A DNA stretch of 64,000 nt, taken from contig JAGVGF010000003.1 in NCBI GenBank assembly GCA_020057295.1, positions 96,001 to 160,000 on the forward strand. Direction: 5' to 3'. The stretch comes from an archaeon. Lineage in GTDB: Archaea; Nanobdellota; Nanobdellia; Woesearchaeales; UBA9642. Every line of letters begins with the position of its first letter. Positions within the stretch are counted from its first letter, which is position 1. The position numbers are program-made. Shown in pieces: positions 57,001 to 63,000 of this stretch.

Positions 57001-60000
57001 AGCATTTCTAAAAAATCTTTTGCAATAGAATATACTTCAGTTTTATCTGTATATGGTAAGGTTATTCCCTTATTTGCTGCTGGAATCATCAAAATATCTG
57101 CTACTTGTGTTGCTCCCATCGTTGCTTGAGGTTTTATTGTAGGATGAGATTTATAACATGCATTTGCAAAATCTGTTACAATCGCTTCTAATTTTTCTGA
57201 ATCTTTCTTTTTCTTGAATACTGATCCGATTTTCTTAATACTGTCTCTTATTTCTTCGTATGCTCCTTTCCATGTGTCTTCATATTTTTTCTCTTCAGGT
57301 CTTCTTAGGTTTGTTATTATATTTCTTAGAGAAAAATCTCTATGATATGTGTCTTTTTGATCGATATATCCTAAAGCATCAAGAATATCAGAACTTAACG
57401 TGTCAAATTCTTTTCTTGTTAATGGTTTATCTTTTAATTCTGGTAACAGTAAATTTATTGAACGATATCCTTCGAAATATTTTTCTGCACTTATGAAATG
57501 TTCTTTTCCAGCATCATCTGTGGTTATCCAAAAATCTAGTACAGGACTTATGTGATGTTTGTATGCTTCCGGCCCTAAATCTACAAGTGTATCGAAATCA
57601 TTTAATGTTGTGCATCCTTGTTCATAATGTATTTTTGCTCTTCTTCCTAATATTTGTTTTCTATCTTTTTTTAAAATTCTTTTTTGTTTTCCTCTATCTT
57701 TTGAACCATAGTCTGCTATGAAGCAAGCTCTTGGTCCTGCTGTGGAAGGAGTTCCTTCTGGAGGAAGATATGTTAAATTATGATATAATTTTTTCCCTTT
57801 TAATTTTTCTTCTTGTCTTAATGCCTTTTCAATAATTAATTGTTCTCCAATTATTTCGTTTGTTAATGGAATTACATTAGGAGATGTTTCTATTAATGCA
57901 CCTTCAGTATTTACCACTAATTCTAAATCCGAAACTTCTTCATGCACGCTCATGCTGCACCTTCAGGATTTTCAACTTCTCTTAGAATTTCAATTGTAAC
58001 TTTAACCATTGTTCTTGGTTTTAGTTCTTGCTCTAACATTCTGGGTATAACTAGGATTGACTGTTTGCCGTGCTTGGCAATCTTTTTTGTTAATATAAAT
58101 TCTTTTTTTTCCATGCTATCCCAACCATGTATAAAAAATTAAGAAAAAAATTATAAAATTATTTGAATGTGTACTTTACTGTGAATCTTTGATTCGTTTG
58201 TGGTTCTAACTTTCCTGATCCCTTGTTTGTGAATGAAGGATTCCATGATATAGACACATTATCGTTCGCCATATATTCTAAATTTCCTTCACCATAACTT
58301 GTTTCAGGTCCATCTTTAGAACTTAAGTTTACTTCGTAAAATCCTGACACTTTCAAACTTGGAGTGACTGTCGCCTCTGCATATACTCCTGTTATGCTTG
58401 TGTTTGGAACTTCTTTTCCGTGTGTATCTATTAATACTGGTGTGAAATATCCTTTTACAAATGAATCTTTAATAGGACTTACACTTAGATGTGCTCCAAC
58501 TCCTATTCTTGCAGGCATTCCTGTTCCGTAGATTAATTGATTGTCAAGACCTACATTTATTCCTGCAACGCTTGTTACATCTTTTGATAAAGTGTTTCTA
58601 CCAAATATCGTAGTTCCACCATTTACATAAAATTCAGTCCAATTATATCCGCTAATATCTGCTGGTAATCCGTAAAAAGTGTTTGTTCTTCCGTATGTAT
58701 GTTCGGGTTTTGTTCCTTGAACCCATTCGAAATTACCTGAATAGTTATCTACAGGTTGAACTGTTGGTGTAGGATTTGTTAAAGTATCTGACTGTGCTTT
58801 GTCTGAAGAATTTTCATTGAAGTATTGTCTTACTTTATTTTCCCACTTAAGTATTTCGTTATTTTGTTCTCTGGTAATTTCTCCTTTGAAAACAGGTCTA
58901 TGTTTCAATAATGCGTCAAATGTTGAATCTGATTTCACTTGCGCGCCAGCTGTATTTATTGCTAAAAATGTTAATAATGCCATTAAACTTGTTTTTATTT
59001 TACTCATATTATCCCCTCCGCTAAAATTAACTACTATGTAGTAATATGTATAAAATATACATATTTATATAGTTTACGGTTTTTACCACTTAGCAATAGT
59101 TAATTAGCTGTTTGTCGTCTATATTTCTTGTCATTTTTGTTGTTAAATTGTGTTTTTTCTTAGTTTAAACATTTATAGAAATATATATAGTTTATACAAA
59201 ATGTTTATATGTTAGATGTGTATTCACTTAGTAGTAATAATTATTTAGGGGGATAGCAAAATGAAAATAACAAATATACTTACTAGCATTGCACTTATGA
59301 GTGCATTAACATTCGGATACAAAGCGAATGCACAGGAAATTACTCCTGTAAAGATTTCTACATCAACAGACATTCAACAAACTAGTCTTAGAAATGGTAT
59401 TAGATTACATAGAACACAACTAGACATGGGAGATGTTACAATAAAGTACGATGCGAAAACAAATCTTAATCCAAGTGTTTCTAAGGATAATTTAAGCGAT
59501 GTCGGTGGAATATATGTTAGCAATATCATAAAGAAAGATAACTTCAATGTAGGAGCAGGATTAACTCAATTAGGAAATTGGGATTCAAAAAGTCAAGCTG
59601 TATTATATGGTTGGGCTGAATTAAATTATGATCAAGTCAAAGTAAAATTGGAAAAAGGACACAGTATAAGAATGACTGCTCCGATGGAATTTGATATAGT
59701 GACTGTATCAAATAGTAAATATTCTGACAATATAAATGCTATAGGCCAAGTATTTTTGATATCCAATAATGGATCAATGTACAATGGAATAGCAGGAAAA
59801 GATGCAAGCGGAAATAATAATAAAGAATTTCACGGATACTTAACTGTTGGAAATAATACTCTTACTGCAACTATAGCTGAAGAGGAAGGTACATCTCATG
59901 TATTAGGTATGGGAAAATATCTTAAAGATGTAGGAGCATTAATGTGGCTTAGAACAGACAGGTCCAAAAGAGATTGGGCATTAAGAGGAAAATTAGGATT

Positions 60001-63000
60001 TGGAAATATAGATGAAAAATTCTTCTCATACAACACAATGGTCGGAACTAACGATTTATTCTTACAGCCTCAATTGTATGAAGGACACTTAAGTCCCGGA
60101 ACTACAAGAGGAGATGCATCATTATCATTAACAGCCGTAGGCAATGGAAAGACTACTTCATTAGAATTAGTTCCTGGAATAAGAACTGATGTTGTATGTG
60201 TTGGTGCAGGAACATATACAGAATTCAAAAACAATCAATCAGTTACAGGATTATCTGGCGGAGTATTCAAGAAATTCTCTGTATCAGGACTTGAAGCTAG
60301 TGTTGAAGTAAATTACAAAAGCATCGGTGCAAATAAAGGATTCAATGCATACGTAACAACAAGTTATAAATTTTAATAAGGAGGAATAAAAATGAACTAT
60401 ATAATTCCTCCATCGGAAAATTTTGACAGGAAATATTTGACTGAACTACATCATAATTCAAGATTAATTCTTGTAGATGATGTTGCAAAAAATACGACCG
60501 GTCTTGTAGGAATAGTTTCAAATCCTGTGCGCGTTGGTGGTCTTAGAAGACAACCTATAACGGTGAATTTTCTTGAGGATAAAGAAAAAATTCCGTTATT
60601 AAGTGGAATTGATCAAACTTTTTTTGATATTTCATATTTATTTCAGGGTGTAGACATAGGTTTTGTTGAAGAATCTAGAACTTTTGAAAATAAATTTAAT
60701 GAAATAATTCGCGGAGTATATGATAAGAATCGTGAAAGTATAGTCTGTTTTTACGATGTGCCGAAAACAAGATCTCAGAGAGTATCTGGAATGAAATCTG
60801 TTTATCCATTATATACAAAAGAAGGATGGAAACTTTTAGAACAGTATCAAGAAGAACAGCGAGTTATAAGAGAAGAAGCAGCAATGATGATGGTTCCTCC
60901 ATTCTAAGGTGAAATAATCTTTACATCTTAAAGAATATGCTTTTGATTATTGGTGCGAATATTAATATTAGGATTAATGCTAATGTTATTAGGCTTATTG
61001 TTAACCATATTTTTATTCCTTTATCTTTTCCGTTAGTGTTTATTAATGCCTTATGTAACATTCTTCCACCATCTACTGGACCTAATGGTAATAAATTAGC
61101 AAGGCCAATTCCTAAACTTAATACTACTACTAATTCTGTTAAATTAATTAAGAAGTATAGTATATAGTATATTCCCTTATACCACCATACTTGTGATTTT
61201 AGTTCGTAATTGTCTGTTATCCCGTATATTCCTATATATCCTTTTGTTGAATCTTTAGGACTTGGAGCAGTTATTAGCGTGATTGTCTTATTTGCATTTC
61301 CTATCGTTATTGTTTCATTAGGTTTAACACACGATAATTGTTCTGTTAAATGTTGAGAATTTTTTATTGGAATTCCGTTTAATGTAGTGTATGGAACATT
61401 CTGTTCTATACCATATTTTTGTGCAGGATATCCTTCTTGTAATTGATTGAATGATATTCCAGTTTCAGTAACCATTGTAGAAGTTATTGGATTTAGTACT
61501 AGTAATAATAATATTGCAGCAAATACTGCAAGTATTCCGTTAAAGAATGGTCCGCTAGCAAATATTGATTGTTGAACTACAGAATCTTTCTTTACTAGAT
61601 TTTTTTCGTCAGGTTCTACAAATGCTCCTATTAATGGACCGAAAAATACTATTCCTGTATTTTTAATTTTTAATCCATTAGCTCGCGCAACTATACCATG
61701 ACCGAACTCGTGAAATACAACTACAATAAATAGTGCGATTATACCATACCAGAATGGAATAAATATTGGGCTTCCGGGAATCTGTATGCCTGGAATTACA
61801 AGCGACATTGTTGGTGGTGCTAAGGGTACAAACAATAATTCATACATTCCTTTAATAATATATCCAGATATGACAATCATTCCAAGGAATCCTACGCCTA
61901 TAGCTGAATTTCCAACAATTTTTACAAATTCTTTATGTTTATCTGCAAATTTGTTGATCCATCTAATACCAAAATCTGTACGATATAAGAATATGAATCC
62001 GCTCTCTACTTGAAATTTTTTCTTATTAAGAATTATAATTACGGCTATTAGCAGGTAAAATAGTAGAACCCACTTATATGTTAAAATAAAATTTAATAGT
62101 CCATTGATGAATGCCATGATTGTAAAAGAAATAAGTGATATTTAAATCTTTACTTCTTCCTAACTGGTCTTAAAGCTCTGCCATTACATTTTCTACAAGT
62201 AACTTCTTTTGCTAATATCTTCATGTTGTCAGATCTAATTTTAGTTTTACATCTTCTACATACAAAGACGTTCTTGTATAATCGTACTTGAGCTTCTGGA
62301 AATTTAACCATTTTTTTGCCTCGTTTATGATATTATTGTAATTAAAATTTATTCAGCTTTAATTTGCTTCATTACTCTATCGTTTAATATTTCCCAATAG
62401 ACTACAGTATTGCCTTCTTTTAATTCCGCTTTTAATTCTTCTGGGATTTTTAAGTCGAATGTTTCGAAAGATTCTGAATCCATAACGTTAGCACTTGATC
62501 CATTGATACTTAATACTTGAGCATTTTTCTTCTCAATTATTGGAACATCAATATTATCGTGACCTGGCATTACTAATTCTCTCTTCTTTCCATCAATCAT
62601 ACCTACAGCAGTAAGTCTGACTTTAGCATGACCGTGTTTTCCTGGTCTTGAAGTTTGAGTATCAGATACAATAGATGCTACACCATCTATAACTACATAA
62701 TTTCCTTTCTGTAATGTTGCTACACTCTTTGGTACAGTTTCACCCATAATTTCACCTATAGTTAATCAATATGATATTATTTAGGAGTTTTGGAGCATTT
62801 AAAAATGTTGTGGGTGATAAATGAATTTCACCATGTAGAATAAACACTTACCTATGAGCATTATATTGGTCATGAACTGATAATAGCAGGTTTAAAAAAC
62901 TCTTTTCGTGTGAGTACTCATATTGTCCCCTATTTTTTAAGAAGAATGGTTTTCCTGATGCAAATATCATTCCAAAAGTAAATATTAAAGACGGATTACG

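Follow-up and report, generated by a model that had tools for sequence, protein, structure and literature searches.

Two predicted outer-membrane-type β-barrel families native to small-genome archaea without detectable Omp85

To our knowledge, transmembrane β-barrels are regarded as a mark of the outer membranes of bacteria, mitochondria and plastids, in which they are always assembled by Omp85 proteins. In bacteria, substrate-specific porins are often paired with a dedicated regulator. The pore protein of the archaeal outer membrane of Ignicoccus, Ihomp1, is a small α-helical oligomer and no β-barrel. The described systems to which the present locus is compared below are the 12-strand Proteobacteria channels KdgM, NanC and Tsx, the larger AlgE, PgaA, OprD/Occ and general porin barrels, phage-encoded outer-membrane proteins, the PopA protein of Bdellovibrio, and the cargo of the Bacteroidota type IX secretion system (T9SS). 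Diderm archaea have been reported (Ignicoccus, ARMAN (acidophilic archaeal nanoorganisms of Richmond Mine) and Altiarchaeum, in the accessible part of PMC8871954), and a possible distant relative of the PopA barrel is mentioned in Altiarchaeales in the part of PMC12228718 available to us; beyond that remark, a literature search that left most subscription journals outside its reach turned up no account of an outer-membrane-type barrel, porin, other outer-membrane protein or T9SS from DPANN or other archaea. Here we analyse a 64,000-nucleotide stretch (the window; positions 96,001 to 160,000 of contig JAGVGF010000003.1, assembly GCA_020057295.1) from an archaeon of the order Woesearchaeales, in which two adjacent, divergent genes encode a 282-residue protein (P0001) and a 371-residue protein (P0002). 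Very probably, both proteins have the fold of outer-membrane-type β-barrels and belong to the archaeon in whose genome they are found.

P0001 and P0002 each start with a Sec-type signal peptide ending in an AxA-type cleavage site, a feature kept within both families (signal peptides were called by pattern and by eye, without a trained predictor). The cleavage site is followed by Gln, with A22 and Q23 invariant in the 10-sequence alignment of the P0001 family and A24 and Q25 invariant among the four closest relatives of P0002. The C-termini read ...VKYTFK in P0001, with the aromatic residue at −2, and ...TTSYKF in P0002; the signal peptides, the Gln and these β-signal-like ends are as described in a first-pass annotation of the sequence. 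Within the families the last residue is aromatic in 4/10 (P0001) and 16/44 (P0002, members of at least 220 residues) proteins, and an aromatic residue occurs among the last three in 8/10 and 27/44, respectively. Between signal peptide and barrel, P0001 has an extension with helices predicted at residues 28–35 and 46–65 and with a predicted local distance difference test score (pLDDT) below 50 at residues 67–87; only P0001 and P0003, a relative 84% identical to it, have this extension, and the other eight family members lack it. In P0002, the long loop between strands 14 and 15 holds many family invariants (P270, H276, L277, S278, P279, G280, R283 and G284 in alignment A2), of which P270 and P279 hardly vary among 39 sequences. 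P0002 resembles porins in that such a long and conserved loop carries a short helix, and by likeness to porin loop L3 this helix-bearing loop probably narrows the barrel lumen. The spacer between the two genes, read by eye, contains GGAGG/GGGGG-type ribosome-binding strings upstream of both start codons and also TATA-like strings, the latter not telling because the DNA is so AT-rich that chance yields them. Neither protein matched a Pfam or NCBIfam family at E ≤ 1, bar one chance-level NCBIfam line, and by sequence comparison the two families are unrelated to each other (BLASTP of P0001 against P0002, E = 2.2; hhalign of the family profiles pairs the signal peptides only).

AlphaFold2, run on the family alignments (10 sequences for P0001 and 39 for P0002), yielded for P0001 a model with 12 strands at residues 90–280 (mean pLDDT 73.5, with about 80–89 in the barrel blocks) and for P0002 one with 20 strands by DSSP and a helix at residues 257–268 (mean pLDDT 89.4, predicted template modelling score (pTM) 0.82), in line with the ~12 and ~18–20 strands that had been parsed from the sequences beforehand. 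Foldseek searches of the PDB with these models returned 109 (P0001) and 97 (P0002) matches at E ≤ 0.001. Among the matches listed, all are transmembrane β-barrels, nearly all of them bacterial outer-membrane proteins together with a few designed barrels, with a Foldseek probability of about 1.00 and with no sandwich or solenoid. Moreover, look-alikes of the two barrels in the ESM Atlas were outer-membrane clusters, namely Phage_OMP, DUF6733, YgjJ and a Spirochaetota cluster with OmpA_membrane in 12% of its members. The amphipathic strands noted in the first-pass annotation were also borne out, as hydrophobic/polar alternation exceeded that of within-strand shuffles, the observed value being reached by 4/2000 shuffles for P0001 and 0/2000 for P0002. 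The more hydrophobic strand face is 74–75% hydrophobic, aromatic or Gly and 5–6% charged, and the opposite face 36–37% hydrophobic and 21–29% charged; in this comparison the 'outer' face was chosen for its greater hydrophobicity, a biased choice, and the outward orientation of that face was assumed rather than read from coordinates. No sequence relation of either family profile to PDB chains was detected at E ≤ 10. On the basis of the models, P0001 and P0002 are predicted to be closed transmembrane β-barrels like those of bacterial outer membranes, the strand count being even in both (12 and 20, respectively).

The matches listed for P0001 include Tsx, OmpG, PcoB, NanC and KdgM, with Tsx (1tlw_B) first by E-value (2.3e-06) and KdgM (4pr7_A) having the best template modelling score (TM-score) among them (target-normalised, TMt, 0.75, with a root mean square deviation of 3.9 Å; NanC 2wjq, TMt 0.69). 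P0001 is like KdgM, NanC and Tsx in its 12 predicted strands, in a barrel domain of ~195 residues and in regulator pairing, since its family is often found beside a dedicated regulator, but differs from them in its 8–14% identity in structural alignments, in having no Pfam match at E ≤ 1, in the additional helical N-terminal extension and in residing in an archaeon without Omp85. By sequence, P0001 belongs neither to the Tsx family (none at Pfam E ≤ 1 or PDB E ≤ 10) nor to KdgM/NanC (none at Pfam E ≤ 1), and the relation is one of fold only (12% identity to 1tlw_B; TMt 0.66–0.75 and 8–9% identity for KdgM/NanC). Thus, of the earlier proposal of a Tsx-like nucleoside channel that would fit the salvage genes of this archaeon, the 12-strand fold class stands, but membership in Tsx by sequence does not, and the regulators beside family members, described below, are of the TrmB type, which Pfam names sugar-specific, and not nucleoside-related. 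For P0002, the matches listed include AlgE, the PgaA barrel, Cir, porins and Occ channels, of which AlgE, the PgaA barrel, OprD/Occ and general porins are the best; P0002 differs from these in its 20 DSSP strands, in query-normalised TM-scores (TMq) of ≤0.43 and in having no sequence relation to PDB or Pfam.

Phage-encoded outer-membrane proteins (Phage_OMP, PF24653) are comparable in that they too are barrels from an entity without an outer membrane of its own, and they occur among the ESM Atlas look-alikes and as structural matches in BFVD, with no sequence match. However, synthesis within the diderm host solves the delivery of phage barrels, whereas an archaeal cell would need to export its barrels. 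As to a phage origin, neither protein matched any of 50,697 phage records by tblastn, and IMG/VR held no relative of the 12-strand family. The Bdellovibrio protein PopA provides a precedent for a barrel acting in the membrane of another cell, but it is a pentameric, lipid-trapping assembly of a diderm bacterium that has the β-barrel assembly machinery (BAM), and it is likened to the archaeal proteins by role, not by homology.

The genome carrying the two genes comprises 1,201,343 bases in 6 contigs (100% complete, 0.46% contamination), and its small-subunit (1391.8 bits) and large-subunit rRNAs best fit archaeal models. The barrel genes lie at about 154–156 kb of a 251-kb contig, and Pfam assignments of the surrounding genes (SpoU methylase, M50 protease, eIF5A, TGT, the class II aminoacyl-tRNA synthetase AspRS, HerA/Mre11 and Lrp) agree with the archaeal neighbourhood seen in the first-pass annotation. 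An independent 10.5-kb metagenome contig (L042) keeps the same order of eIF5A, M50, 171-aa, 371-aa, 282-aa and 801-aa genes, with a flank identity of 98–99%. In an independent groundwater DNA run, a ~90%-alike relative is present in short contigs, one of which spans window positions 58050–59789; these contigs bridge the two barrel genes, not the junctions between barrel genes and flanks. No RNA data set was listed for the window. GC content at third codon positions (GC3) is 0.199 for both barrel genes, compared to a genome mean of 0.200 (sd 0.031). Relative to the L042 orthologs, the ratio of nonsynonymous to synonymous substitution rates (dN/dS) is 0.26 for P0001 and 0.12 for P0002, compared to 0.05 for the M50 and eIF5A genes, so that, judged from these ratios, both barrel genes are fast-diverging yet under purifying selection. 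A member of the 12-strand family is also carried by a single-contig genome (G241). Given the neighbouring genes, the independent contig, GC3 and dN/dS, mis-assembly and recent unselected transfer are very unlikely and, with the rRNAs also archaeal, the check for chimerism identifies the genes as native rather than as mis-assembled bacterial DNA.

Both families are small. Nine relatives of P0001 were detectable in a set of 5.8 billion proteins, and 49 representatives of the P0002 family were found at E ≤ 0.001 among 1.84 billion, with no Pfam family on any of the 39 scanned. In a phylum sample of 401 genomes, each at least 90% complete, the 371-aa family occurs in nine genomes (4 genera from four families of one order) and the 12-strand family in 14 (8 genera), both families being found together in seven; within the genus of the host archaeon, 4 of the 13 species sampled have the 371-aa family. 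These appear to be two barrel families confined, as far as sampled, to one order of small-genome (DPANN-like; Diapherotrites, Parvarchaeota, Aenigmarchaeota, Nanoarchaeota plus Nanohaloarchaeota) archaea, the homolog searches having covered the archaeal phylum sample and protein representatives, not bacterial genomes. The host, a groundwater archaeon, is classed as probably DPANN-like on its genome size, on its habitat label and on the number of small-genome families that its order contains. In a quick tree of the 371-aa family, the 11 sequences that come from archaeal genomes lie dispersed, and the starred branches force at least five label changes.

Some members of the two unrelated families have a leader in common: in L006, L007, L015, L018 and L019 of the 371-aa family and in L026 and L030 of the 12-strand family, ...ALSGQPDTT.LEQK... 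takes the place of a classical signal peptide. In G414, a genome from another order of the same class, a 235-aa protein with a signal peptide and a C-terminus reading ...FNYNFGGK (L024:788-1495) is encoded directly beside a 12-strand member, with an AbrB-type regulator adjoining, and the two may constitute a tandem barrel pair.

Components of outer-membrane biogenesis were searched for in the same genomes. Omp85 (PF01103), the search for which had been suggested in the first-pass annotation along with BamA, gave no hit in the host genome and none in the 401 phylum-sample genomes, with seven diderm controls positive. TamB and LpxC likewise gave no hits in the host genome, and neither did glutaminyl cyclase of the plant type (PF05096) or of the animal type (M28, PF04389), for which controls were positive. 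The SprA_N profile for the T9SS translocon had no match, but its control was positive in no genome.

Gln directly after the signal peptide is found in 10/10 members of the 12-strand family and in 36 of the 38 members of the 371-aa family with a recognisable signal peptide (29 by strict pattern and 7 by eye); of the two exceptions, one is a fragment truncated at its N-terminus and the other genuinely has no Gln there. Gln at position +1 after the signal peptidase site is known as the Bacteroidetes 'Q-rule' (Bochtler et al., PMC5837995, in the sections accessible to us). In a crude secretome of the host archaeon, the pattern occurred in nine of 159 signal-peptide-like open reading frames (ORFs), these being the two barrels, four proteins with T9SS-type domains, one other protein and two likely false positives; two further barrel-related proteins of this genome introduced below, a paralog of P0002 and a 245-aa candidate, also have A|Q. 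Above the Pfam cut-off, the T9SS-type C-terminal domain Por_Secre_tail was found on five secreted host proteins, all encoded outside the window, in four of which Gln directly follows the signal peptide. The archaeon therefore resembles the Bacteroidota Q-rule/T9SS cargo in the +1 Gln on its barrels and in its five Por_Secre_tail domains, but differs in having no glutaminyl cyclase and in the barrels themselves, since Pfam found no Por_Secre_tail on P0001 or P0002. Across the phylum sample, Por_Secre_tail was present at E ≤ 1e-4 in 47/401 genomes, in 38 of them above the cut-off (46/400 without G262, whose match is below it). Among 15 such proteins of other genomes examined by eye (20 loci fetched minus five with an unmatched reading frame), Gln was at +1 in 10, was not in four and was ambiguous in one. 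The domain occurs in 8/16 barrel-carrying genomes compared to 39/385 others, a difference that overstates the link because related genomes are not independent. Together, the +1 Gln and the T9SS-type domains are suggestive of a Bacteroidota flavour for the idea of a diderm partner, without demonstrating it.

The two genes occupy an island whose borders are conserved and whose content is not (Table 1). SpoU orthologs (59–63% identity) flank the island in four other genomes (G003, G006, G008 and G010), and orthologs of the M50/eIF5A border were found in 5/5 further members of the genus searched. By comparison with loci L035–L038, the SpoU–M50 segment (window positions 53766–62117) is a hotspot with cargo that differs per species of the genus: in G003 there is no island, the M50 and SpoU genes being immediate neighbours; the island of G006 holds unrelated genes, with two ~400-aa proteins; and G008 and G010, which belong to this genus, have barrels 24–26% identical to P0002 at the locus. 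By gene order, the barrel genes are accessory genes of this variable island. Of its other genes, the one for the 801-aa protein has a counterpart in G008, where a 332-aa homolog of the C-terminal part of that protein adjoins the barrel gene, and the 171-aa ORF is about 48–54% identical to its L042 counterpart, with a dS of 1.14, whereas the flanking genes are 95–99% identical and have a dS of 0.16–0.19. Since this ORF is far more diverged than its flanks, allelic replacement within the island is suggested.

An AbrB/SpoVT-type regulator of ~300 aa, like that in the window, lies beside the barrel gene at 6/6 of the 371-aa family loci that were examined outside the host genome, and the AbrB domain is present in all seven aligned members of this regulator; a PhoU-like C-terminal domain was considered for it and not found. 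At the 11 loci of the 12-strand family, a TrmB-family regulator adjoins in six, an AbrB-type regulator in one and an Lrp-type regulator in one. Because TrmB-, AbrB- and Lrp-type regulators adjoin members of the two families, the barrels appear to be wired into archaeal-type, nutrient-style regulation.

Table 1. Features of the barrel genes, their island and related loci. Unprefixed positions refer to the window; prefixed positions lie outside it.
Feature	Position	Strand	Basis or remark
282-aa protein P0001 gene	58159..59007	-	ORF; signal peptide, helical N-terminal extension and 12-strand barrel (predicted)
P0001 signal peptide, residues 1-22, ends AGA, then Q23	58942..59007	-	Sequence
P0001 N-terminal extension, residues 23-87	58747..58941	-	Two predicted helices and low-confidence Pro/Thr linker
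P0001 barrel domain (predicted), residues 88-282	58162..58746	-	Family alignment, AlphaFold2, Foldseek
Divergent AT-rich spacer, 253 bp	59008..59260	.	Separates the P0001 and P0002 genes
371-aa protein P0002 gene	59261..60376	+	ORF; signal peptide and 20-strand barrel (predicted)
P0002 signal peptide, residues 1-24, ends ANA, then Q25	59261..59332	+	Sequence
P0002 long conserved loop with helix, residues 248-285, between strands 14 and 15	60002..60115	+	Helix 257-268, high pLDDT
SpoU methylase gene, conserved left island border	53766..54509	-	Pfam
303-aa AbrB/SpoVT-type regulator	54611..55522	+	Pfam MazE_antitoxin/AbrB domain, 8.1e-06
801-aa island gene, weak protein-kinase-like N-terminal match	55548..57953	-	Pfam Pkinase E=0.0027, 17.6 bits, below the cut-off of 31.7
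171-aa ORF, without signal peptide or family	60392..60907	+	16 bp downstream of the 371-aa gene, same orientation
M50 site-2 protease and eIF5A genes, conserved right island border	60921..62747	-	Pfam
420-aa β-propeller protein	41245-42507	-	FG-GAP/PQQ_2
Por_Secre_tail protein	C3:175469-177571		Pfam
Por_Secre_tail protein	C3:181642-183441		Pfam
Por_Secre_tail protein	C4:172242-172967		Pfam
Por_Secre_tail protein	C5:13771-14499		Pfam
Por_Secre_tail protein	C2:256804-257841		Pfam
Paralog of the 371-aa barrel (356 aa)	C5:55831-57231 (L013:8829-11393)		
245-aa ORF, candidate barrel	C1:51199-51936 (= L063:3200-3937)		Signal peptide ends VKA|Q

The same genome encodes further proteins of this kind. 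A 356-aa paralog of P0002 on C5 is preceded by a divergent Lrp/AsnC regulator and followed by a 105-aa lipobox ORF, and the same trio is present in G001; among 41 relatives searched, the lipobox ORF was found in only these two genomes. Complex prediction for the paralog barrel and the lipobox protein, run without controls, scored 0.00 and is evidence neither way. The 245-aa ORF, which adjoins a large ORF that by eye is gyrase-A-like, is rich in Gly, Tyr and Asn, ends in ...ISKQF and has no Pfam or NCBIfam family; its sequence features suggest that it may be a member of a third barrel family. The genome total is thus at least three members of the two barrel families and a fourth candidate.

From these data we infer membrane insertion, channel function, substrate class and location of the barrels, and propose that both native archaeal proteins would be exported via Sec, would insert, unaided by BAM, into a lipid layer that lies beyond the cytoplasmic membrane of the archaeon and would act there as regulated, passive and probably substrate-specific solute channels. 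Taken whole, this proposal of regulated, BAM-independent channels outside the cytoplasmic membrane has in our view an even chance of being correct. The lipid layer in question would more likely be a partner cell's envelope or a membrane of the contact zone than an outer membrane that the archaeon has constitutively, because outer-membrane biogenesis genes are missing from the host genome and the barrels have a patchy distribution within the genus; that the genes are patchy and lie in a variable island argues against a core role in a lineage-wide outer membrane, and their fast divergence, their accessory status and sorting marks without known readers in the archaeon would fit a role in a partner's envelope. 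Nonetheless, the barrels might also be located in an outer layer of the archaeon itself.

Several observations weigh against this proposal. Insertion of the barrels into a membrane is deduced from the predicted fold; confidence in the P0001 model is moderate (pLDDT 73.5), and the P0002 model has no close structural neighbour (TMq ≤ 0.43), its strand number coming from DSSP alone. We know of no mechanism that moves an unfolded barrel into the membrane of another cell. All cultivated DPANN archaea have archaeal hosts, as stated in the accessible part of PMC11291902, and such hosts have neither BAM nor an outer membrane. The lipobox ORF following the C5 paralog would be in keeping with a complex on the surface of the archaeon itself. 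Moreover, two well-supported clades in the quick tree (15 and 6 of 40 representatives) contain no sampled archaeal-genome sequence, and on these sequence data, the 371-aa family may have bacterial members and may be of bacterial origin.

The archaeon might instead have an outer lipid layer of its own, with the barrels as porins assembled via a non-Omp85 route. The reported diderm archaea (PMC8871954) and the possible distant barrel relative in Altiarchaeales (PMC12228718), both as given in the portions of those papers we could access, would agree with this, as would the pairing of the C5 paralog with a lipobox ORF, the presence of at least three family members and a fourth candidate in one genome, and the ...SGQPDTT.LEQK... 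leader on some members of both families, which could mark a dedicated targeting route. Yet just 9/401 and 14/401 genomes have the respective families, as does only a minority of the genus, with the locus empty in G003 and filled by unrelated genes in G006, and an envelope layer should not be so dispensable, unless undetectably diverged barrels substitute; with Omp85 (0/401), TamB and LpxC also absent, we regard an own outer layer as rather unlikely. Less probable again are secreted pore-formers serving as weapons against competitor or prey cells with no uptake role, for although the genes evolve fast and are accessory cargo of a variable island, there is no conserved immunity-like partner, the recurrent neighbours are nutrient-type regulators (TrmB, Lrp), and the fold class is that of monomeric porins, unlike known β-pore-forming toxins. 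A more specific version of the partner scenario is slightly more doubtful still, namely that these archaea live on Bacteroidota-type diderms and plant their own regulated pores and adhesins in the host outer membrane; here the +1 Gln, the β-signal-like C-terminus and the T9SS C-terminal domain would be marks to be read by the host's glutaminyl cyclase, BAM and T9SS, respectively. If true, this would give the first bacterial host for a DPANN archaeon as well as the first case of outer-membrane biogenesis being hijacked across domains.

The two remaining explanations deny either the fold or the archaeal residence. That the proteins are soluble or cell-wall-associated β proteins, over-assigned to barrels by AlphaFold2 and Foldseek, could draw on the shallow alignments (10 and 39 sequences), the pLDDT of 73.5 for P0001, the low TM-scores of P0002 to every solved barrel and the missing PDB sequence match at E ≤ 10. 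It is nonetheless quite improbable, given the pLDDT of 89.4 and pTM of 0.82 for P0002, PDB matches that, among those listed, are transmembrane barrels with probability of about 1.00, the strong dyad pattern with one face nearly charge-free, and look-alikes from an independent language model that are outer-membrane-protein clusters. We give least credence to the view that these are Bacteroidota genes acquired through mis-assembly, mis-binning or recent transfer and functionless in the archaeon. The +1 Gln, a Bacteroidetes hallmark (PMC5837995, as far as accessible), and the five T9SS-type C-terminal domains in the same genome would speak for it, as would the fact that the searches did not cover bacterial genomes. 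However, the genes lie deep in a 251-kb contig amid archaeal housekeeping genes, with their order kept in an independent contig; diverged copies occupy the same locus in two other species; GC3 equals the genome mean and dN/dS falls well short of 1; the archaeal-type regulators next to family members are conserved; and the 371-aa family has just 49 representatives in 1.84 billion proteins, none of the 39 scanned having a Pfam family.

What the locus appears to offer is two conserved, selected and regulated barrel families native to small-genome archaea without Omp85, TamB, LpxC or glutaminyl cyclase. If the barrels are seated in a membrane, they would represent either natural BAM-free barrel assembly in an unseen archaeal outer layer or pores of a symbiont in the envelope of another cell, and either outcome would bear on metabolite supply in DPANN archaea and on outer-membrane evolution. 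The two proteins are compact and thus allow direct tests of BAM-independent folding.

Elsewhere in the window, a 420-aa β-propeller protein with FG-GAP/PQQ_2 matches is encoded (Table 1). The Pfam title of PQQ_2 contains 'BamB', but the match is generic to propellers and does not point to a BAM complex.

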